NCBI GenBank assembly: GCA_964362535.1
Contig: CAYIEN010000005.1
Location: forward strand, 1,320 to 65,319
Direction of reading: 5' to 3'
Length of the DNA stretch: 64,000 nt
Source: an uncultured Methanosarcinales archaeon
GTDB taxonomy: Archaea > Nanobdellota > Nanobdellia > Woesearchaeales > ARS49
Both the position numbers and the translations under genes were made by a program. The notes under the pieces were generated by a model. It saw nothing but the letters and a program-made list of their open reading frames with translations. It ran no database searches and was not told where the DNA came from. Below, piece by piece: positions 8,805-21,405 of this stretch (positions are counted from its first letter, which is position 1; each line of letters opens with the position of its first letter).

Positions 8805-9797
8805 TTAAACATCTCGTTTTCGAAGTATCCAGATGAACCCGCCAAGAAGGGCAAGACCGAGAATGACGCCGAGCACTTGAGCAGCTGTGGATGTGAAGAA
8901 GGGTGTGTTGGTGAGCGAGTCGTTCATGGCATAGAACGCTGTCATGCTCCACGGGATGAAGCGAGTTACGGTGAGTTCGATGAAGCTTGTTCCTCGCCAC
9001 CACACCATGATGGCGCCGATGGTGATTAAGATGGCTGCGCTGATGAGGTTGAACGTGTGAATCTCGTATTTGCCAATCTTGAGTGTTTTTCCGGTCCAGC
9101 GTGCCCAGTCGAATTTGTCGGACAAAGCTGCGATGATGATGAGGGGTATGCCGACGCCGAGGGCGAAGAATGCGAGCATGATGGCGCCTTGCAGTACGCT
9201 GCCGGTTGTTGCTGCCAAAAGTAAAATGCCTCCGAGTACGGGTCCGATGCAGGGGCTCCAGCCGAATGCAAAAGCAAAGCCGAACAAGACTAATCCCCCA
9301 GGCTTCTTCGTCAGCAACTTAGGATGGAACGTTCCAAATCCTTTGTTGAAGAGCAAGAGGAATCCGAACAGGATGAATATCAAACCTGAAAAGATTGCGA
9401 AGGGTCCGCGATATTGGTTGATGAACGTACCGGCGAATGCGGCAGCAATTCCTAACAAAATAAATCCTATCATCATGCCGAGCGTGAATAGTGAAGTCAT
9501 CATCACGGCTTTTTTTCGTTCTTTGAACAGGATGGTGAAGAAGGTGGGCAACAAAACAAATCCGCAAGGACTGGTAAAGCTTATGATTCCGGCCAAGAGC
9601 GCTGCGAGGAAGGTGATGCTAGCTGCCAATTGATTACGATATTCAATAATCTTCAAAACGCCGAGGGGTAATGTTGAAGAGTTGGTGGCGGTAGCGTGGT
9701 CAAATTCGTCCTGCGGAGTCATGTGTGACACGCCATCATGGGCGAATACAACGGTGGCTAATAGCAAGAATACCAGAATCCACACGCTCGTTTTCAT
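8805..9797 (-). CDS. ccdA: CcdA/DsbD-family thiol:disulfide electron-transfer membrane protein
   Basis: Start set at MKTSVWILVFLLLATVVFA (signal-like). The longer ORF would overlap fba. Paired membrane cysteines FTSPCGFVLLP and WSPCIGPVLG, 6+ TM segments. Confidence 0.8.
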   Translation of the reverse strand: MKTSVWILVFLLLATVVFAHDGVSHMTPQDEFDHATATNSSTLPLGVLKIIEYRNQLAASITFLAALLAGIISFTSPCGFVLLPTFFTILFKERKKAVMMTSLFTLGMMIGFILLGIAAAFAGTFINQYRGPFAIFSGLIFILFGFLLLFNKGFGTFHPKLLTKKPGGLVLFGFAFAFGWSPCIGPVLGGILLLAATTGSVLQGAIMLAFFALGVGIPLIIIAALSDKFDWARWTGKTLKIGKYEIHTFNLISAAILITIGAIMVWWRGTSFIELTVTRFIPWSMTAFYAMNDSLTNTPFFTSTAAQVLGVILGLALLGGFIWILRKRDV

Positions 9798-13061: not shown

Positions 13062-13829
13062 TTATTGCCTTACCTGATTTTTACGGATTTTGAGCCAGAG
13101 AACAATACCAACCCCGACCATCGCCACGCTCAACCACTGCCCAATCGTCAAAAAGCCCCACATGACTTCGGGTTCTTTGAAGTATTCGACGACGAAACGG
13201 CAGGCGCCGTACATGATGAAGAATAACGCGAAGAGTGTGCCGTGGGGCAATTTCTTTTTGCTTAAAAAGAGTAATACTGCAAAAATAACTAAGTTGTAGA
13301 ATATTTCATACAATTGCACGGGGTGTCGGGGGACTTCATCTACTGCGGTGTAAATCATTGCCCATGCGCCGTTAAACGCGCGGCCAACTAATTCTTGATT
13401 AAACAAATTACCAAGTCTACCGAATGCTTGAGCCAATGCGCCAGGCACAATCAAAACGTCAGTGAATTGCCAGAATGATAAATGGTGTTTGCGGCTGAAA
13501 TACCAGACGGAAAGGATGCAGCCGATGAATCCGCCGTGGAAACTTAACCCGCCTTTCCAGACGGCAAGAATGTCCAAAGGATTTGCAAAATAGTAGGATG
13601 GCTGGTAAAACAGCACTTCAAAAAGTCGCGCGCCAACAACCATGGAGACGACAATCCAGAAGTATGCGTTGTCGAAGTCTTTCAAAGTCATAGAAAATCG
13701 TCCGTGCTTAATCAGGTGTGTGCCGTAATAGTATGCGGCAAACACGCCAAGTGCATAAAGCAGTCCGTACCAGTAAATCGTAACAAAGCCAAATGAAAAC
13801 AGGACGGGGTTAAGCGTGTTGACGAGCAT
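13062..13829 (-). CDS. lgt: prolipoprotein diacylglyceryl transferase (bacterial-type Lgt)
   Basis: Start at MLVNTLNPVLF. Matches to the E. coli Lgt signature blocks: WKGGLSFHGGFIG, GRLGNLFNQELVGR, RHPVQLYE. Confidence 0.88.
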   Translation of the reverse strand: MLVNTLNPVLFSFGFVTIYWYGLLYALGVFAAYYYGTHLIKHGRFSMTLKDFDNAYFWIVVSMVVGARLFEVLFYQPSYYFANPLDILAVWKGGLSFHGGFIGCILSVWYFSRKHHLSFWQFTDVLIVPGALAQAFGRLGNLFNQELVGRAFNGAWAMIYTAVDEVPRHPVQLYEIFYNLVIFAVLLFLSKKKLPHGTLFALFFIMYGACRFVVEYFKEPEVMWGFLTIGQWLSVAMVGVGIVLWLKIRKNQVRQ

Positions 13830-14616
13830 GTAGTGCCTCCATGACGCGGGCGATGTAAACGCGAATAACGAACAGTCCGGGGAAGACGAGGAGTATTCCG
13901 AGGATGCTTCCCGCAATGCTGTTTTGGACGAACGTCCACATGATAAGTGCGTTCACGACCAAAACCGTTCCGACAAGGAGTGCGGCTGCAGGAATGAGCG
14001 TGTCAAGTTTTCGCGTGCCTAGAACAAAGGCCATTTTGCTGGCGTGTTTCCAGGAGTCTTTGATGATGGCTGTTGCGAGGATGAAAAAGTAAACGATGAT
14101 TGCGATAATGATGATGAATATGGTGTGTGGAACAGTCGAAGCGGCTTGTTCAGTGACTTGTTGTACGAGTATTGCGCGCAAATCAATGACGGTAACAACC
14201 AAATTCAGAATGCTGATAGGTACAAACCATGCGGCACAAAGTTTTGCGAACTGCCCGAGAGGAGTGCCTGCGGCGAGTTTCCACGCAAAGCCTTGAAAGA
14301 CGGAGTAGAGGGCGTAGACGATGAGTAACAGAATGACAATCCAGAACAGAATCATGAGCGTAAATGGTAAAGCTGTTTTGTCGAAGAACAACTGCATCAG
14401 GCTGGGAGTTGTATAAGTGGCAGCGGCTGCAGACAAAAGCGTACTAAATGTTTGCGTTAAGTTTCCAGCGGCGATGAAGAGTTGTTCGCGGGGAAACTGC
14501 GTAATAAAACCGTACAAGAAAAGAAAGGCAATGTCAACGACGCAAGATAATAAGACGTGCAGTGGGCGTGTCCAGAGCGCGGTGAGTGCGTGTTTTGCGG
14601 CTGTTAACGCAATCAT
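13810..14616 (-). CDS. hypothetical polytopic membrane protein
   Basis: 268 aa, 6+ hydrophobic segments. Overlaps neighbouring genes at both ends, operon-like. Confidence 0.5.
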   Translation of the reverse strand: MIALTAAKHALTALWTRPLHVLLSCVVDIAFLFLYGFITQFPREQLFIAAGNLTQTFSTLLSAAAATYTTPSLMQLFFDKTALPFTLMILFWIVILLLIVYALYSVFQGFAWKLAAGTPLGQFAKLCAAWFVPISILNLVVTVIDLRAILVQQVTEQAASTVPHTIFIIIIAIIVYFFILATAIIKDSWKHASKMAFVLGTRKLDTLIPAAALLVGTVLVVNALIMWTFVQNSIAGSILGILLVFPGLFVIRVYIARVMEALHARQHA

Positions 14617-15122
14617 GTCTTTCCGCCGACAATCAGGGTGCCGTCGTTAGTGCTGGAGGTGTCGTCGTATTTGAATTCGCCTTTGATGGTACCATAAAAC
14701 TCAACAAGAACGGTTTCGTCGGGCGCGATTGTTTTTGCAATGTCATATTCTTTGACGTTGAACGTGTGGCTTTTGGTGTCGTCGTTCGAAATTGTCAATT
14801 TGACACGGTCTCCGTGGCCTACGGTGAGAATTTTCGGATCAAATCCAGATGCGGTGATGGTGATGGGGATTTGCAATGTTTTTCCAGAGCGATAGTTTTC
14901 CGCGTCCTGCTGCGGAATGTTGCTTAATCCGGAAGAAGGCGACGCGCCGAGCTGGTCTTGGACCGGCGCGACAGGGATGTCTGAGACTTTTTCTTGTTCC
15001 TGTGAGGAGTAGGTAGAGTCTGTTGATTGTGTTGTATCTTTTGTTTCGATTGTTGAAGGTGCGGTTGTGCATGCTGCGAGCAAGAGTGCTAAGCAGAGTA
15101 AAAGAGAGATTGTTTGTTTCAT
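14613..15122 (-). CDS. lipobox lipoprotein with cupredoxin-like domain (no Cys ligand)
   Basis: MKQTISLLLCLALLLAAC (lipobox LAAC), S/T/Q-rich linker, then ITITASGFDPKILTVGHGDRVKLTISNDDTKSHTFNV cupredoxin-like pattern. Confidence 0.55.
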   Translation of the reverse strand: MKQTISLLLCLALLLAACTTAPSTIETKDTTQSTDSTYSSQEQEKVSDIPVAPVQDQLGASPSSGLSNIPQQDAENYRSGKTLQIPITITASGFDPKILTVGHGDRVKLTISNDDTKSHTFNVKEYDIAKTIAPDETVLVEFYGTIKGEFKYDDTSSTNDGTLIVGGKT

Positions 15123-15499
15123 TGTGTTGCCTCCGTGACTTCTATTGCGCCGAGCATGTCTCGGTGTCCTGTTCCGCAGGGTACGCTGCAGCGGTATTCG
15201 AATATGCCTGCTTTGTCCGCGACAAAGGTCATGTCTGTTGTTTTGCCTGCTGGAATGATGGCTGATGCGCGAAATGCGGGTATAGAAATGCCGTGTTCAA
15301 CGTCAGAGCTGGTTAAATGAATCTTGACCGTATCTCCTTTGTTGACCGTGATGAGTGCGGGTTCGAATGCGTATTGTTTCACTACCATGTCAAATTCTTT
15401 GGTTTCACCGGTTGTCGAGACGGGCTGCGATGCTGAAGTGCAACCCACTAGTAATAAGCACAGGATGAAAAGAAACACTGCATTCATACCGCCCCTCAT
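15119..15499 (-). CDS. lipobox lipoprotein, CuA-type (COX2-like) cupredoxin
   Basis: Lipobox LLVGC. DVEHGISIP then exactly 34 residues to CSVPCGTGHRDM, i.e. the H-x34-C-x3-C-x3-H-x2-M CuA ligand pattern. Alternative start at 15487. Confidence 0.7.
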   Translation of the reverse strand: MRGGMNAVFLFILCLLLVGCTSASQPVSTTGETKEFDMVVKQYAFEPALITVNKGDTVKIHLTSSDVEHGISIPAFRASAIIPAGKTTDMTFVADKAGIFEYRCSVPCGTGHRDMLGAIEVTEATQ

Positions 15500-15542: not shown

Positions 15543-15917
15543 CTATATTGCTATTTCAACGTTCAACTTGTCAAAAGCAACGATTGGTTTTACTTTTGTG
15601 CGTTCGTCTTTGCTTGTTTCTAATGTGATGATTCCGAGGCTTGCGAGTATGGTTATGTCGGTGTTGACGCTTTTGAGGTCGCGATGCACGAGATGAGCGA
15701 GTTCGTAAATAGAATCAGGTTCTTTTTCTTTGATGACGCGCAGTAATGCGATTCTTTTTTCGGTGAGTATTTTTCGTAGTGTTGCCATCGTTGCAAAAGA
15801 AAGCTCGTAATGAGGGGTTATCTTTTTGCCGTTCTTGAGATCCATGTATGCTTGCGCAAATTCATTAAGCACTGTTTTTGTTTCTTTTACAGTTATCTTG
15901 ATATTTTTTGTTCTCAT
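15543..15917 (-). CDS. HTH DNA-binding protein, putative antitoxin (TumA / HVO_A0114-like)
   Basis: 124 aa. Central wHTH-like segment (IYELAHLVHRDLKSVNTDITILASLGII). 4-nt overlap with the upstream TumE-like gene. Confidence 0.5.
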   Translation of the reverse strand: MRTKNIKITVKETKTVLNEFAQAYMDLKNGKKITPHYELSFATMATLRKILTEKRIALLRVIKEKEPDSIYELAHLVHRDLKSVNTDITILASLGIITLETSKDERTKVKPIVAFDKLNVEIAI

Positions 15918-16210
15918 AGCTCACCTTTTCTGAGTTTTTCAACGTCGTCCATAAAATCGCTGATGACTGCCCACATATCTTTATAGGGATAAGGCATTAT
16001 TTTATTTCGTAGATGCTTATGGTGGTTGCTTTTGCCGGTTCCGTGATGCTCGTTATCATATCCAATGATTCTCTTTCCTTCCGAAACATAAACGAGGGAA
16101 TATACTTCACCTTCAGGATACGCTGGCGTAATGGGCACTGCCCAAATGTTCATTTCAATAATATCCCCGTTTGGTTCCACCTGTTTCAAATAAAACAGTT
16201 CTTCGCTCAC
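15914..16210 (-). CDS. TumE-like (DUF6516) putative toxin
   Basis: 98 aa. IIGYDNEHHGTGKSNHHKH block matches my recollection of the DUF6516/TumE family. Confidence 0.5.
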   Translation of the reverse strand: MSEELFYLKQVEPNGDIIEMNIWAVPITPAYPEGEVYSLVYVSEGKRIIGYDNEHHGTGKSNHHKHLRNKIMPYPYKDMWAVISDFMDDVEKLRKGEL

Positions 16211-16290
16211 TAACTAAGGTACGGGATACCCCATATATAAATGTTTGTAGCGATGGCAACTATTAAAAAGTCTGACGGAGGTGTTGCGGT

Positions 16291-16962
16291 ATGCGCATCG
16301 ATCTTCCCGTTCCGTTGGTTTTGCAGGAGAAAGATTCGGTGGAGTGCGGTCTTGCGGGACTATCGATGCTTTATGGATTCTATGGAAAAAGCAAAACAAT
16401 TGCTGAACTGAAGGAACACATCAAAATCCATGCTGTTGGAACGTATGCGCCGCAACTCGGGACATTTCTGAGAAAAGACGGATTTCACGTAGAAATCATC
16501 ACGCACCATCCATCGCTTTTCGTAAAAAAAGAACAACAACTCTCACAAGAAGAACTCAAAGAAAAATTCAAATTGTCGTTAGAAAAACAACAAACAGAAA
16601 ATGTCAAAAACGTACTGCAATACTTTCATGAATTTCTCGAAAACAAAGGAAAATTGACAGTTAAGATTCCGACGCCTGATGACGTTATTTTTCAGTTAAA
16701 GCAAGGCCATCCGGTCGGTGCCCTAGTGACGAGTAATTTTGTTCATGGTTCCAAAGCGGTTTTTAATTACCATTTTCTTCTTATCCGAGGCGTTACCGAA
16801 ACGGGATTCATTGTGAATGATCCTATTCCTGACGAACGTGGCGGCGTGAAGGAATACACGTTTGACGAGTTCAGATATGCGCTGTATGCAAGTGCTGCAG
16901 GAGACTTAGACAACGCATCACTATTCATTGCCTATCCTGACGTGCATACTCGACCAGCATAA
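16291..16962 (+). CDS. peptidase C39-like papain-fold cysteine peptidase (stand-alone)
   Basis: 223 aa. QEKDSVECGLAGLSMLYGFYG (oxyanion Gln + catalytic Cys) and HFLLIRGVTETGFIVNDP (His/Asp). GGAGGTG SD upstream. Confidence 0.6.
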   Translation: MRIDLPVPLVLQEKDSVECGLAGLSMLYGFYGKSKTIAELKEHIKIHAVGTYAPQLGTFLRKDGFHVEIITHHPSLFVKKEQQLSQEELKEKFKLSLEKQQTENVKNVLQYFHEFLENKGKLTVKIPTPDDVIFQLKQGHPVGALVTSNFVHGSKAVFNYHFLLIRGVTETGFIVNDPIPDERGGVKEYTFDEFRYALYASAAGDLDNASLFIAYPDVHTRPA

Positions 16963-17223: not shown

Positions 17224-18315
17224 TTACTGCGTAGGTTGTGTAACCAATTGTCCGTTGGTCAAGTTCTTTGCTGTTGTGCCGGGCAATAATTCAGTGTGTC
17301 TGAACACGTAAATATTGTTCTCAGCGGTTCCGACTTGGGACCAGACTTGTTGCAACGAAGGATAGAGTTGCGGGTCTCCCGTCATGACGATGGTGGGGAT
17401 CATTTCTATCTTGTTTGTCGCAATCAATTCTTTTGCTTCCGCACTTGAAACGTCAAGTGTTTTTTCGGTGTAGGGTTTGATGCCGAAGCCGAGCAGGATT
17501 TGTTTGTGCATGCTGACGTCGTAACAGGTGGTGCAGGTCGCGTCAACGAGGTTGATGAGGTTGACGTGTCCTCTGACCATTTTTGTTGCCAAATCGTAGT
17601 AGGGTGGCGCGATGGTTCGTAGAACAAACAATCCATCGGGGGCGATGTCTCCTGCTTGCTCCCAGGTTTGCGTGATGAGTTCGTATTCGGCAGCATCTGG
17701 TGATAACACAACGGCAGGAAGCTTCGTTAATGAATATGCCGCTATCATGCGCTTGCCGTCTTCGCTGGATGCCGTGTATTTTGTTTCCGAAGCGACAAAC
17801 ACTCCTGCGCTCTCGAGTTGTGCGCCAAGAACGGTAATGTTTCCACAGTCAGTACAGGTTCCTGCGTCTGCAAGAACATAGGTAATGGCAACTTTGCCTT
17901 TGACCGTGCTGCTTTGTACATCATAATAGGGTGCGGGTGAGTCAATCAACAAGACGCTTCCTGATTTGCGCGTGCCTTCAAGGGCAAGTGCGGAAGTATC
18001 TCCTTCGATGACAATGGCGGGCAATCGAGTGATGTTGTTCTCGGTTGCGAGTCGTTGCGCGTGCGCGTCAGTAATAGCGAGTTCTTGGGAGTTCTCCACT
18101 TTGTAGGTAGTACCCTTCAACAATTCAGCATAAACGGATTGCATATCAAAACAATCAGTACAATCTGCCGTGATCAAAGTAACTTCAATTTTGGGCAGTT
18201 TCGGTTCTGAAGCAGAACCAATGCCGGCGATTTGGTATGCGTTGAAGAGCATGACGACACCAATAAGACAAGCTAATACGATGTGGATTGGTCCGAATGT
18301 TTTTGTGTGTTCCAT
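17224..18315 (-). CDS. membrane-anchored protein with three tandem thioredoxin-like CxxC modules
   Basis: N-terminal TM. Three ~110-aa repeats, each with CTDC/CTDC/CTTC followed ~50 aa later by (L/I)P(A/T)(I/V)V and then PPYYD. Confidence 0.55.
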   Translation of the reverse strand: MEHTKTFGPIHIVLACLIGVVMLFNAYQIAGIGSASEPKLPKIEVTLITADCTDCFDMQSVYAELLKGTTYKVENSQELAITDAHAQRLATENNITRLPAIVIEGDTSALALEGTRKSGSVLLIDSPAPYYDVQSSTVKGKVAITYVLADAGTCTDCGNITVLGAQLESAGVFVASETKYTASSEDGKRMIAAYSLTKLPAVVLSPDAAEYELITQTWEQAGDIAPDGLFVLRTIAPPYYDLATKMVRGHVNLINLVDATCTTCYDVSMHKQILLGFGIKPYTEKTLDVSSAEAKELIATNKIEMIPTIVMTGDPQLYPSLQQVWSQVGTAENNIYVFRHTELLPGTTAKNLTNGQLVTQPTQ

Positions 18316-18324
18316 GTGTATACC

Positions 18325-18753
18325 TCAGAGTGGGCAGCCCGTTAGTGCAGACAATCGTTCAAGGGACTGGACGTTTTCGTACATTTGTCCGTTTATCTGC
18401 CACGTGGGTGTTTTTTTGATGTTGGGACCGTTGGTGTGGTCCTCGTACGTGATGAATTTGAAGCTTTTGCCGAACATGCCTGCTTGGTCTTGGGTGTAGC
18501 TGCACCATTCGATTGCGCCATACATGACTGCGTCTTTCTCTGATAAGCATTTTGCGAAAGAGTCGAGTCTGCCAGGCATCGCGAATGCGATTCCTGCAAT
18601 GAGCAAAACCAGCGTGAGCACGATGCCGCTTGTCCAATAGATTTTTTTGCGTCGAGACGCATGAGCTGAGTTTTTTGCCTGTAATGCCGCGTCGCGTTCT
18701 GCGTTGCGCTGGACTTGTTTCAGGCGTAGCTCTTCATGTCGGGAAGTATCCAT
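18325..18753 (-). CDS. membrane-anchored thioredoxin-like protein with degenerate active site
   Basis: TM at 40-58. FAKCLSEKDAVMYGAIEWCSYTQDQAGMFG...TPTWQINGQ...LTGC resembles the VKOR-associated Trx-like domain, but WCPHC is replaced by WCSYT. Confidence 0.5.
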   Translation of the reverse strand: MDTSRHEELRLKQVQRNAERDAALQAKNSAHASRRKKIYWTSGIVLTLVLLIAGIAFAMPGRLDSFAKCLSEKDAVMYGAIEWCSYTQDQAGMFGKSFKFITYEDHTNGPNIKKTPTWQINGQMYENVQSLERLSALTGCPL

Positions 18754-18798: not shown

Positions 18799-18987
18799 CT
18801 ATAGTGCTACGGATTCGTCTGTTGTTTCCGCGCAGGGGTCTTCAGTAGTTACTGAAGCGCCGACTCCGCATCCGCCGCCGACCGGTCCTGAGGCAGGTGT
18901 GTATGTTGCTTGACCAGTGGTGCATCCGCTGACGAAGACGAGCCCGATGATTGCGAGCACGAAGATTACTGTTCCGAGTTTGTTCAT
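18799..18987 (-). CDS. small lipobox lipoprotein (62 aa)
   Basis: Start at MNKLGTVIFVLAIIGLVFVSGC (lipobox VSGC). Mature part has GGGCG and DPC cysteines. Confidence 0.45.
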   Translation of the reverse strand: MNKLGTVIFVLAIIGLVFVSGCTTGQATYTPASGPVGGGCGVGASVTTEDPCAETTDESVAL

Positions 18988-18997
18988 GTTAGATACC

Positions 18998-19195
18998 TCA
19001 ACATCCGCCAACCATTGTTGGGAGATTCTGTAGTCCGGAGGGCACGTTGGAGCCACCGGATGTTCCTGTCGAGCTGACTTTGAAGGTTCCGCCCGCTATT
19101 TTTTGCTTGATGTCGTTGATTTGGAATGCTTGCGCGACGCTGATGACGAGCAATACTGCCAGAACAACTGCGATGATGATGTTTGTTTTTTTCAT
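18998..19195 (-). CDS. small signal-anchored protein ending LPTMVGGC
   Basis: 65 aa, one N-terminal TM. C-terminus is shared with the next gene. Confidence 0.5.
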   Translation of the reverse strand: MKKTNIIIAVVLAVLLVISVAQAFQINDIKQKIAGGTFKVSSTGTSGGSNVPSGLQNLPTMVGGC

Positions 19196-19286
19196 TGTTG
19201 TGTACCTCGCTAAAATGAACTTAGCAGCCCCCTACATATGCCGACGTGCTGTCGGCAAAGTTGTAGGTTGCGCAAATAAAAACCAT

Positions 19287-20114
19287 TTAGCAACCTCCAA
19301 CCATATTGGGCAAGTCTGCGCCGATGTCTGTTGATCCGGCATTGATTTTTTTGAGTAGTTGTACGTCGTTGAGCGCTGCGGGGGTTAACTCCATGTTGTT
19401 GTTGACAAGTGCAACGCCTTTTTCAACCATGTTTTTCGGGAAAAAGATGGATTTCCATCGCGTGACTTCCCAATAGATTTGTTCATCGGTCCAGTCGCCA
19501 GAATGCTGGGTGACTAAATACTTTGTGAGTCCGCGGATGGCAAGTGCGTGTGAGCATCCGCAAAGGTCGCGTCCGTTTGCGTCAGCGACGGCAGGTGCTG
19601 AGCAGCAGTATTCGCAGGAGATTTTGCTGACGGTGGAAACGTATCTTGTTTTTTGTTCGGGAGTTAGAGCGGAAGTGGCGATGGCACGGTCGAGTCGTGC
19701 GAGAACGGTGAGGCTGGGAACGGGGTCGTCGAACGAGACGCCAAGTTCTGTGCCGTATTGTTCGGGTGTGCCTGTGGGGATCATTGCTTTGATGACTTCG
19801 TTGACGACGTCGTCGTTTGCGTCGAGTTTGATGCTGCCGCTGGTTTTGTCCGCGGTCGGTCCGGCAAATCCTGTTCCGCCAGTGCCTCCCGATCCCAACT
19901 GCATGAGTTGGATGCCGTTAAAGACAACAACAAGAGCGATAACTGCAATAAGCAAATAGCTTAAACGTTCGATATTGGAAGAAGGTTCGTGATGTGTTGC
20001 GTGGTGTTTCGGTGAAGCGCTGGGCGTGGTTGCCTTTGCGTGTTCGTGAGCGTGTTCAGAGTGCGCGTGCGGCGCGTTTGGGTCTTCGTCTGGCTGAAAT
20101 ACTTTGATTGGCAT
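19287..20114 (-). CDS. membrane protein with His-rich N-tail and Cys-cluster ectodomain, ending LPNMVGGC
   Basis: Start at MPIKVFQPDE behind AAGGGGG. HAHSEHAHEH...HHATHH, one TM, CEYCC...CGCSHA. The longer track ORF runs through the promoter region. Confidence 0.55.
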   Translation of the reverse strand: MPIKVFQPDEDPNAPHAHSEHAHEHAKATTPSASPKHHATHHEPSSNIERLSYLLIAVIALVVVFNGIQLMQLGSGGTGGTGFAGPTADKTSGSIKLDANDDVVNEVIKAMIPTGTPEQYGTELGVSFDDPVPSLTVLARLDRAIATSALTPEQKTRYVSTVSKISCEYCCSAPAVADANGRDLCGCSHALAIRGLTKYLVTQHSGDWTDEQIYWEVTRWKSIFFPKNMVEKGVALVNNNMELTPAALNDVQLLKKINAGSTDIGADLPNMVGGC

Positions 20115-20319: not shown

Positions 20320-20676
20320 ATGAAAGAATTAGTAACAAAATTTGACGACATTCTCAGTCCGTTAGAGTCTGATGTGCTCGCAATCATTTGGCCAAACAAA
20401 CAAATGAAGGTGCGAGAGATTTACGAGCAACTCAAGAAAAAAAGAAAAGTCGCGTTGAGTTCAGTTGCCGTGATTCTTGACCGTTTGCATGACAAAAAGA
20501 TCGTGATGCGCACGGAAGAAGTCGCGCGTGGCGGAACAAGATATACTTACTCGCCTGCGGAAGACAAGAAGACGTTTGAAAAGAACGTTGTTGAAGAAGC
20601 AGTTAACAATCTCATAGAGTCTTTTGGTCCGGTTGCAGTGAATTATTTCAACGACCGATTCAGTAAAAAGAAGTGA
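20320..20676 (+). CDS. BlaI/MecI/CopY-family winged-helix repressor
   Basis: 118 aa. LSPLESDVLAIIW...REIYEQL...LSSVAVILDRLHDKKIV pattern. No C-terminal CxC metal motif. Confidence 0.8.
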   Translation: MKELVTKFDDILSPLESDVLAIIWPNKQMKVREIYEQLKKKRKVALSSVAVILDRLHDKKIVMRTEEVARGGTRYTYSPAEDKKTFEKNVVEEAVNNLIESFGPVAVNYFNDRFSKKK

Positions 20677-20679
20677 ACA

Positions 20680-21405
20680 ATGAACCTTGCTGACTTGATT
20701 GTGATTTTTGCGCAGAGTCCGACCTATGTAATGCTCACAATATTGACGTTGTTGAGCGCGTTTATCGTGTTGGTGTTTGCGCGCAGAAAAACACTTCCTG
20801 TCACGACACGAGTGTTTTTGATTTACGTGCATCTCGCGTTGTTGGTTGTTCCTGTTGCGTTGTTCGCGTACTCCAGCGGTTGCGCCATGCCAATGGTTGA
20901 TTGTACTTGGAAAACGACGCTTTATGCAGCGCCGTTCATTTTGCTCGGCCTGATCGCGACGGCAGGCATCATCGGATACTTTGTGCTTCCCCGAATGTAC
21001 AGCAAGAACGCGGTAAAGTCAGAAGATAACTCCTTGTTAAGATTCATCAAGCATCATTCGACAAAACACAATCTCAAAACGCCTGAATTATTCCTTGTTG
21101 ATTCGCGCGTGCCGATGGCGTTTAGCTTTTCGGCGTTCAAGCCGTCAATGTATCTATCTATAGGATTGATGGATTTGCTCGAGCGCAAGGAACTTGAGGC
21201 AGTTATTTTGCACGAGATTGGTCATTTGCATCACAAGAGCGCATTACTAAAGTTCTCATCGCATTTTGTGCGTTGGTTTAGTCCGATTGCGCATTTTGGC
21301 AAGAACACGATTGTGGATGAGGAAGAACATATTGCAGATGTGTTCGCGATCGACGCGCAAGGCACGGATAAGTATTTGACCGCAGCATATGAGAAAGTGA
21401 GATAA
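20680..21405 (+). CDS. BlaR1-like M56/M48 membrane zinc metalloprotease (no sensor domain)
   Basis: 241 aa, 3-4 N-terminal TMs, HEIGH zinc motif (ILHEIGHLHH). Starts 4 nt after the repressor stop. Confidence 0.7.
   Translation: MNLADLIVIFAQSPTYVMLTILTLLSAFIVLVFARRKTLPVTTRVFLIYVHLALLVVPVALFAYSSGCAMPMVDCTWKTTLYAAPFILLGLIATAGIIGYFVLPRMYSKNAVKSEDNSLLRFIKHHSTKHNLKTPELFLVDSRVPMAFSFSAFKPSMYLSIGLMDLLERKELEAVILHEIGHLHHKSALLKFSSHFVRWFSPIAHFGKNTIVDEEEHIADVFAIDAQGTDKYLTAAYEKVR

Follow-up and report, generated by a model that had tools for sequence, protein, structure and literature searches.

A conserved C-terminal Gly-Gly-Cys tail on paired proteins of DPANN archaea as a candidate cysteine swinging arm

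A C-terminal cysteine tail is conserved across a DPANN protein family

A 64-kb window (the whole stretch of 64,000 nucleotides analyzed here, from contig CAYIEN010000005.1 of an uncultured archaeon) contains two adjacent genes for predicted membrane-anchored proteins of 275 and 65 amino acids, referred to below as the large and the small protein, which end in LPNMVGGC and LPTMVGGC with the cysteine as the very last residue. The large protein belongs to a DPANN-wide family that has no Pfam, NCBIfam, PDB or Foldseek relative, and comparison of homologous loci indicates that the large and small genes are an obligate, co-varying pair. Together with a third, lipid-anchored protein they form a module that points to an undescribed system at the cell surface, in which flexible arms ending in cysteine probably pass on disulfides, sulfur or metal. 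Our preferred interpretation, to which we assign a probability of roughly 45%, is that the tail serves an extracytoplasmic thiol relay as a flexible swinging arm tipped with cysteine; hand-off of Cu(I) is its main, and a serious, rival.

In a set of 5.8 billion proteins, 687 significant homologues of the large protein were found, without a Pfam domain on any of them; the sole names that the sources supply are "hypothetical protein", from Woese-, Nano- and Aenigmatarchaeota. MVGGC formed the C-terminal end in 116 of the 120 best homologues, and the other 4 resemble truncated entries. These counts confirm the signature that the original prediction had described on the two adjacent membrane-anchored proteins, and they clearly overturn the refuting condition set there, absence of the motif from homologue C-termini, which would have meant a local duplication. 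An exhaustive HMMER search gave 255 clusters of the family (50%-identity representatives); among the best 149 representatives, 77 ended in MVGGC, 35 in another xGGC sequence (mostly QVGGC) and 16 in some other sequence closing on cysteine, the terminal cysteine thus being retained in 128 of these 149 divergent proteins. Gln replaces Met at position -4 in about 30 of the 149, which form a large subfamily, and divergent members may carry Asp or Glu at -1 (MVGDC, MVGEC, WVGDC).

In an alignment (A2) of 135 diverse members, reaching 25-30% identity, the columns C167, C170, C171, C187, H189, P226, G273 and C275 were invariant and C185, V272 and G274 near-invariant. The terminal cysteine is conserved equally with the internal cluster C167-x2-C170-C171...C185-G-C187-x-H189, in line with the earlier proposal that the free terminal cysteine is the key residue, and the pattern C-x2-C-C-x(8-20)-C-x-C-x-H occurred together with a C-terminal cysteine in 244 of 269 sequences. 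Species-representative genomes, scanned with a separate alignment (A1) because A2 was too variable for this purpose, contained the family in contigs with Woese-, Nano-, Aenigmat- and Micrarchaeota labels, along with a few whose bacterial or Methanosarcinales labels are implausible. No Pfam or NCBIfam family matched the large or the small protein, no family match recurred among the 135 aligned members, and a profile search of PDB sequences with the large protein returned nothing below E = 1.7, the CsdA match at that value being rejected as a chance hit due to its ...GGC stretch. The mechanically called open reading frame (ORF) of the large gene extends to a TTG at 20399; we took the ATG at 20114 as its start because homologues begin MPIKV or MPLKV and a GGGGGA box lies upstream. 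The protein then consists of a His-rich N-terminus, one transmembrane (TM) helix, a mostly alpha-helical domain, a flexible linker and the LPNMVGGC-COOH tail.

The small protein has an N-terminal TM helix ending in (N/Q)xxQ(I/L), a linker rich in Ser, Gly and Ala, and LPTMVGGC-COOH. Among 178 distinct small proteins, the segment between helix and tail is 12-64 residues long (median 37) and is 58% Ser, Gly, Ala, Thr and Pro, and the terminal cysteine is the sole cysteine of the ectodomain in all 178. The small protein is therefore limited to monothiol action. The motif [NQ]xxQ[ILVMF] at the end of the TM helix was present in 74 of 145 large, 80 of 94 small and 16 of 76 triple-thioredoxin proteins and was nearly absent from the remaining TM neighbours, which suggests that the large and small proteins are likely to lie in a common complex; the small protein is in essence the large protein minus its domain. 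The next gene encodes a third arm protein, with homologues in 55 loci in which (V/G/I)GGGCG is invariant. Its GGGCG motif lies about 20-25 residues past the lipid-attachment cysteine, and some copies stop exactly at ...GGGC(G). Gly-Gly-Cys peptides of three types, all tethered to the membrane, thus belong to the module.

The tail appears to be specific to this module. Of 4640 stop-to-stop frames in the window, solely the large and small proteins end in GGC or contain MVGGC. A DNA-pattern scan of metagenomes for L-P-x-M-V-G-G-C followed by a stop codon hit at least 120 loci; among the matches listed, 105 of 169 tail-ending frames matched the hidden Markov model (HMM) of the large family, two were 8-residue chance frames and nearly all the rest were either truncated pieces of tailed genes or small proteins of the TM-linker-tail type. 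Since the tail is confined to two protein types among these matches, it is not a general sorting or anchoring tag. The suggestion of a new C-terminal tag made in the original prediction holds in the narrower sense of a conserved, previously undescribed signature: a full-text literature search for "MVGGC", the sole literature check made, found no paper with a title or abstract on the motif. Of the roles that the original prediction listed for the tail, a metal-binding thiolate and a site of covalent attachment or carriage are both still plausible.

The large and small proteins form a co-varying pair

Among 87 related loci, 80 carried, immediately downstream of the large gene, an ORF of 60-110 amino acids with the same ending, and some loci carry two or three small genes. 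The last five residues were identical in all 141 distinct large/small pairs from the loci fetched (135 MVGGC, 5 QVGGC and 1 MAGAC), and the Pro at -6 agreed in 128 of the 141. One contig (L210) contains two adjacent pairs, in which ...RQVGGC is matched with ...QQVGGC and ...EMVGGC with ...GMVGGC. This coexistence of a Q-type and an M-type pair points to recognition of each tail by the large protein of its own pair rather than by a third party common to both. Tail-less large proteins (the CDYCC subfamily and a few variants ending in ...YRGIEN) still precede a tailed small gene, suggesting that the tail can be supplied in trans where the large protein is without one.

The DNA similarity of the two tails reported in the original prediction is no more than trivial. 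The large gene encodes its tail as TTG CCC AAT ATG GTT GGA GGT TGC and the small gene as CTC CCA ACA ATG GTT GGC GGA TGT, such that the ATG and GTT codons are identical, whereas the shared Leu, Pro, both Gly and the Cys are all encoded by different synonymous codons. The likeness of the tails consequently lies at the peptide level and does not reflect a recent DNA duplication. Across the pairs, codon identity at shared tail residues was slightly higher than expected (0.37-0.72 vs 0.24-0.55); selection on the peptide rather than gene conversion seems to explain the match best.

An RNA stem-loop with the core GCCGAC...GUCGGC lies between the large and small genes (19196-19286, - strand; minimum free energy -34.9 kcal/mol, z = -3.75 vs shuffles). 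This hairpin could set the large:small expression ratio or serve as a processing or attenuation site.

Predicted structure and topology

An AlphaFold2 model of the large protein, based on 88 homologues, had a mean predicted local distance difference test score (pLDDT) of 83.5. Residues 90-260 were predicted at pLDDT >94 and are mostly helical, and the cysteine motifs sit in a hairpin (165-187) leading into the start of a helix (188-203). In the final 15 residues pLDDT dropped from 72 to 50, and the tail of the large protein is thus predicted to be flexible. Foldseek comparison of the model with the PDB and BFVD gave no match at E <= 0.001, the best template-modelling score (TM-score) against the PDB being about 0.16. 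Positive-inside analysis of the large proteins gave a K+R of 2.41 vs 1.04 for the two flanks of the TM helix, which supports a C-terminus facing outward. Both membrane-anchored proteins probably face outward, an outside topology that we infer.

A proposed thiol swinging arm

If the tail is a swinging arm, it would present one invariant cysteine thiol at the outer face of the membrane. The large protein would carry the arm on its Cys/His-rich domain, the small protein would be an arm-only version with a like membrane anchor, and the product of the next gene would be a lipid-anchored arm bearing GGGCG. The arm cysteine may form covalent adducts, namely a mixed disulfide and possibly a persulfide, and would dock at the CxxCC...CxCxH cluster of the cognate large protein, in cis from the large protein or in trans from the small one. 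Adducts would then be passed to, or electrons received from, the triple-thioredoxin protein and the monothiol thioredoxin (Trx)-like protein encoded alongside (Table 1), both of which would be supplied from the cytoplasm via CcdA. Gly-Gly would provide reach and low bulk, while the free alpha-carboxylate on the cysteine, together with the residues at -3, -4, -6 and -7, could provide pair-specific recognition; the hydrophobic residues noticed earlier at -4 (Met) and -7 (Leu) are indeed present in both tails. We infer both the docking at the cysteine cluster and the chemistry carried on the arm.

A swinging-arm carrier is suggested because an invariant single thiol, Gly-Gly, a free carboxylate and a disordered membrane tether are found together with co-variation of the tail with a partner that bears a Cys/His-rich domain. 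A thiol relay is favoured because conservation among the partners is highest for thioredoxin-fold proteins and CcdA, the latter being a route that moves reducing equivalents out of the cytoplasm.

Several observations count against a thiol relay. AlphaFold2 leaves the tail, at a pLDDT of about 50, undocked from the domain of the large protein, and in the model the CxxC...CxC-H hairpin followed by a helix start resembles a structural metal knuckle rather than a redox centre. The positive-inside rule is not decisive for the small protein, with a flank K+R of 2.16 vs 1.75, and pair specificity inside one contig comes from L210 alone. Copper-linked neighbours (a CuA cupredoxin in 29 loci, DUF411 in 14 loci and a CopY-like repressor) would suit a metal role equally, as would the His-rich or Cys-rich cytoplasmic N-termini.

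A more ambitious form of the thiol relay, which we regard as possible but doubtful, is that the MVGGC and GGGCG arms would be membrane-tethered, gene-encoded monothiol "cofactors" outside the cell, akin to small thiols or to SoxY, serviced by a new Cys/His-rich enzyme fold with an arm of its own and recharged via CcdA and a triple thioredoxin resembling protein disulfide isomerase. If true, such a monothiol system could represent the machinery, so far missing, with which the quinone-poor, reduced-genome DPANN handle disulfides or detoxify sulfur or metals outside the cytoplasm; it could alternatively be an extracellular electron sink, for example for persulfide or polysulfide reduction.

Alternative explanations

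The main rival, a serious one that we nevertheless consider unlikely, holds that the arm hands off metal. The terminal thiolate, the Met at -4 and the free carboxylate would bind Cu(I) or another soft metal, which would move by ligand exchange among the arms, the metallothionein-like CxxCC/CxC/His site and clients such as CuA-type cupredoxins, and the Trx-like proteins and CcdA would keep the ligand cysteines reduced, as TlpA does with Sco and PCuAC in bacterial CuA assembly. A single-cysteine arm would suit two-coordinate Cu(I) bridging two partners, and the seven invariant or near-invariant Cys and His residues of the large protein have a hairpin and helix-start geometry typical of metal sites. 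The neighbourhood is also in keeping with copper: the CuA-type cupredoxin, with its C-x3-C-x3-H-x2-M motif, in 29 of 128 loci; DUF411, which we take to be the copper-resistance protein CopG (the database label is merely 'Protein of unknown function'), and DUF302, in 14 loci each; cytoplasmic N-termini that are His-rich in the large and triple-thioredoxin proteins and bear CC or C2H2-like motifs in some small proteins; and a repressor whose top NCBIfam match is CopY/TcrY, though far under the curated cut-off. However, the repressor in the window is without the C-terminal cysteine motif of CopY, and neither a copper ATPase nor a CopZ family is among the 25 commonest neighbour families. Gln, a poor Cu(I) ligand, takes the place of Met at -4 in the large subfamily described above, and the best-conserved neighbours are the thioredoxin-fold proteins and CcdA, not copper proteins.

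It is improbable, in our judgement, that the small protein is a decoy or regulatory arm, whose tail would compete for the site of the large protein's tail or have its state read by the BlaI/M56 pair. The identity and pair specificity of the tails, the TM motif common to the large and small proteins and the stable RNA hairpin between their genes would all fit such a role, and the pair is accompanied by a divergently transcribed BlaI-like repressor in 62 of 128 loci and by an M56 protease lacking a sensor in 41. Up to three small genes per locus and an additional lipoprotein arm, on the other hand, look more like several carriers, and tail-less large proteins retain a tailed small partner.

Less probable still is that VGGC mimics a lipobox and that the terminal cysteine is thioether-lipidated, for instance by the nearby bacterial-type Lgt, or is linked to the surface, thus tying the protein at both ends. 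The endings MVGGC, MAGAC and MVGSC do fit a relaxed lipobox pattern such as that in PROSITE, and a strong Lgt homologue (PF01790, E 2e-73) is encoded in the window and at 13 of the 128 loci. The lipobox, with the consensus [L/V/I][A/S/T/V/I][G/A/S]C (PMC12462473), nevertheless acts at the end of an N-terminal signal peptide, not at a C-terminus. In the window, the VGGC of the tails is a loose fit at the C-terminus and a true N-terminal lipobox is found in the third gene. Asp or Glu at -1, as in divergent members, is not tolerated by a lipobox, anchoring signals mark diverse cargo whereas this tail is on two protein types, pair-specific co-variation would be unexpected with a common transferase, and the Lgt is accounted for by the many true lipoproteins of the locus. 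A eukaryote-type CaaX or Rab prenylation motif was rejected, given that the cysteine is the last residue and that the TM anchor and flank charges (2.41 vs 1.04) predict a domain facing outward.

A processing or sorting signal, whether an LPxTG-like one for sortase or a double-glycine site cut by the C39-like peptidase (16291-16962), is effectively refuted by the locus counts, the position of the motif and the range of cargo. The likeness is superficial, consisting of the opening LPx, the Gly-Gly, the hydrophobic -4 and -7 positions and a C39-family peptidase 2 kb away. Among 87 loci, just 1 has a C39 homologue in the vicinity of the module, and the copy in the window is in a non-syntenic block; the link to this peptidase offered in the original prediction is hence abandoned. 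One residue follows Gly-Gly, and the motif is C-terminal, with no N-terminal leader and core peptide. As for sortase, positions 4-5 are Met-Val and not Thr-Gly, the cysteine is followed by a stop codon with no TM segment or basic tail, whole subfamilies keep MVGGC without LP, the tail is not on diverse cargo and the 25 commonest neighbour families include none that is sortase-like; the TLxTC sortase signature was found in no real ORF of the window, which is a weak test. The earlier suspicion that neither comparison was exact was well placed, as the defining features of both fail. The C39-like peptidase gene (+ strand) adjoins genes for a TumE-family toxin (15914-16210, - strand) and an HVO_A0114-type winged helix-turn-helix (wHTH) protein (15543-15917, - strand), and the block 15543-16962 is missing from the syntenic loci L001 and L003 and looks locally inserted, separating the cupredoxin genes from the thioredoxin gene.

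Chance, or a functionless local duplication or gene conversion that homogenised the ends of adjacent genes, is refuted by the conservation of the motif across all groups sampled under a DPANN label (Woese-, Nano-, Aenigmat- and Micrarchaeota), by a terminal cysteine that is invariant to 25-30% identity and by the differing synonymous codons of the two tails.

Comparison with known cysteine arms

By working principle only, the closest known analogue is the arm of SoxY, a protein that ends in GGCGG-COOH. The cysteine of the SoxY VTIGGC swinging arm covalently carries pathway intermediates and visits several enzymes, and changes in the arm motif go along with substrate or partner specificity (PMC5336275, PMC11237559). 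As in SoxY, the tail described here is predicted to be extracytoplasmic and has a single conserved cysteine after Gly-Gly and hydrophobic residues near the end of a flexible arm; G273, G274 and C275 are invariant or near-invariant, and a low-pLDDT tail follows a confident domain. The GGGCG of the third protein is even nearer to the GGCGG of SoxY. Unlike SoxY, the module proteins have no SoxY Pfam match and no Foldseek match, and their cysteine is the very last residue in the paired tails. The arm hangs either from a membrane anchor by way of a disordered tether or from a Cys-rich, alpha-helical domain of a new kind, whereas that of SoxY is on the soluble SoxYZ heterodimer, and the partners are Trx-like proteins, CcdA, BlaI and M56, with no SoxZ, SoxAX or SoxB among the 25 commonest neighbour families.

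DsrC likewise has a conserved cysteine at the tip of a flexible C-terminal arm, strictly conserved at the penultimate position, that enters DsrAB, and single-cysteine members of the DsrC/TusE family are persulfide carriers (PMC3397948). These proteins differ from the module in being cytoplasmic, globular and unrelated in sequence, with a penultimate cysteine and no membrane tether. Erv2 (with a C-terminal Cys-Gly-Cys), Erv1 and Ero1 resemble the large protein in combining an alpha-helical domain and a CxxC-type centre with a mobile terminal segment, which ferries redox equivalents from the buried centre to protein partners and back. Thioredoxin reductase and MerA also have C-terminal redox tails, that of MerA carrying Hg. 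Erv oxidases shuttle disulfides on flexible tails that are poorly ordered in structures (PMC3509050). The known shuttles are cysteine pairs, whereas the module arm has one cysteine, and the module proteins show neither a flavin adenine dinucleotide (FAD) or quinone signature nor structural similarity (Foldseek against the PDB) to Erv/ALR, Ero1, DsbB or VKOR. We know of no separately encoded arm-only paralogue for shuttle enzymes of the Erv/Ero1 type, nor, to our knowledge, is there a precedent for a separately encoded, membrane-tethered arm mirroring an enzyme's own arm. On sequence, fold and partners the module proteins belong to none of the families compared here.

The analysis defines a module of three Gly-Gly-Cys arm proteins, encoded near genes for cupredoxins, CcdA and thioredoxin-fold proteins, and its confidently predicted domain matches nothing known in family or fold. 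DPANN archaea, most of them uncultivated, abound in groundwater and sediments and have many conserved genes of unknown function. The module is a candidate for surface cysteine chemistry or copper handling in organisms without DsbB, VKOR or quinones, and comparable gaps in the disulfide pathways of bacteria are recognised (bioRxiv 10.64898/2026.03.05.709764). Should the arms prove to be carriers, the use of a separately encoded protein, tethered to the membrane, as a swinging arm would be a new design principle. The eight-residue C-terminus is also a handy tag for recognising module proteins in metaproteomic data.

Genomic context of the module

The window carries the neighbour set seen across the 128 loci (Table 1). 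In the monothiol Trx-like protein the motif YGAIEWCSYTQDQ has CxxT where CxxC is expected, and WC.(Y/F)TQ.Q was conserved in all four loci compared that have this gene. The CcdA gene is more distant in the window, whereas elsewhere it is a frequent close neighbour of the module. One of the cupredoxin lipoproteins (15119-15499, - strand, 126 amino acids) is CuA-type and matches COX2 and NosZ C-terminal domain models, with no oxidase or N2O-reductase catalytic subunit in its neighbourhood; the cupredoxins are a possible client or partner of the module.

Table 1. Positions of the module genes and their neighbours in the window, and their recurrence. Counts out of 128 are from unbiased ORF clustering of loci of >= 5 kb; those out of 87 are separate counts from related loci.
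Feature	Position	Strand	Basis	Loci of 87	Loci of 128
CcdA/DsbD_TM-type thiol-electron transporter	8805..9797	-	PF02683, E 5e-13		58
Lgt	13062..13916	-	Pfam LGT PF01790, 247 bits, E 2e-73		13
Two cupredoxin lipoproteins	14613..15499	-	Family matches		29 (CuA-type)
Triple-thioredoxin protein, TM-anchored, 363 aa, CTDC/CTDC/CTTC	17224..18315	-	Thioredoxin family matches	50	77
Monothiol Trx-like protein, TM-anchored, 142 aa, YGAIEWCSYTQDQ	18325..18753	-	Weak Thioredoxin_4 match	28	41
Third arm protein, 62 aa, lipoprotein with lipobox FVSGC and VGGGCG	18799..18987	-	ORF and homologues
Small arm-only protein, 65 aa, MKKTNIII...LQNLPTMVGGC	18998..19195	-	ORF and homologues; stop TGA		88 (ORFs >= 70 aa only)
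C-terminal arm of small protein, L-P-T-M-V-G-G-C + TGA	18998..19024	-	Sequence
Large protein, 275 aa, MPIKVF...GADLPNMVGGC	19287..20114	-	ORF and homologues; stop TAA		123
C-terminal arm of large protein, L-P-N-M-V-G-G-C + TAA	19287..19313	-	Sequence, homologue ends, alignment
BlaI/CopY-type (Penicillinase_R) repressor, divergently transcribed	20320..20676	+	Family match	37	62
M56/M48 (BlaR1-like, HEIGH) membrane metalloprotease, sensor-less, paired with repressor	20680..21405	+		32	41
C2H2-TM-His-rich protein					42
TM-wHTH protein					42
DsbA-like protein					15
DUF411 protein					14
DUF302 protein					14

Other observations at module loci

The Lgt of the window is bacterial-type in a DPANN context, and further copies were found at L001:12937-13710 and L003:14197-14961, with many lipobox proteins alongside. 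A 2025 paper states that no archaeal Lgt homologues have been identified so far (PMC12462473).

On a Desulfobacterales-labelled contig with otherwise bacterial-looking genes, a family member (L088:7075-9416) has an N-terminal fusion to an FKBP-type peptidyl-prolyl isomerase (PPIase). The fusion protein retains ...MPNMVGGC, there is no small arm gene downstream, and a DUF1573 protein encoded two genes upstream ends in ...KPIEGC. The PPIase fusion, a single case, is compatible with a folding or chaperone role.

Four neighbour families with cysteine motifs and no Pfam match may be part of the same system: a multi-TM family starting AHCPLCTAAVGA (31 loci; representative L046:4874-5395), a soluble family with EEWCxSKH, often ending in ...DCC (26 loci; L060:7388-7738), and two TM families, one with CHxxC (23 loci; L023:8795-9235) and one with CCAHH (23 loci; L061:8437-9006).

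Several anchored proteins have an N-terminal C2H2-type zinc-finger-like segment before the TM helix, examples being L026:3924-4658 (DsbA-like), L032:9024-9713, L105:6884-7267 and L189:254-670. Among the carriers of this segment are the DsbA-like protein, a His-rich protein of 210 aa and part of the small arm proteins; CC motifs take its place at the N-terminus of further small arm proteins, and the large and triple-thioredoxin proteins are often His-rich in this region.

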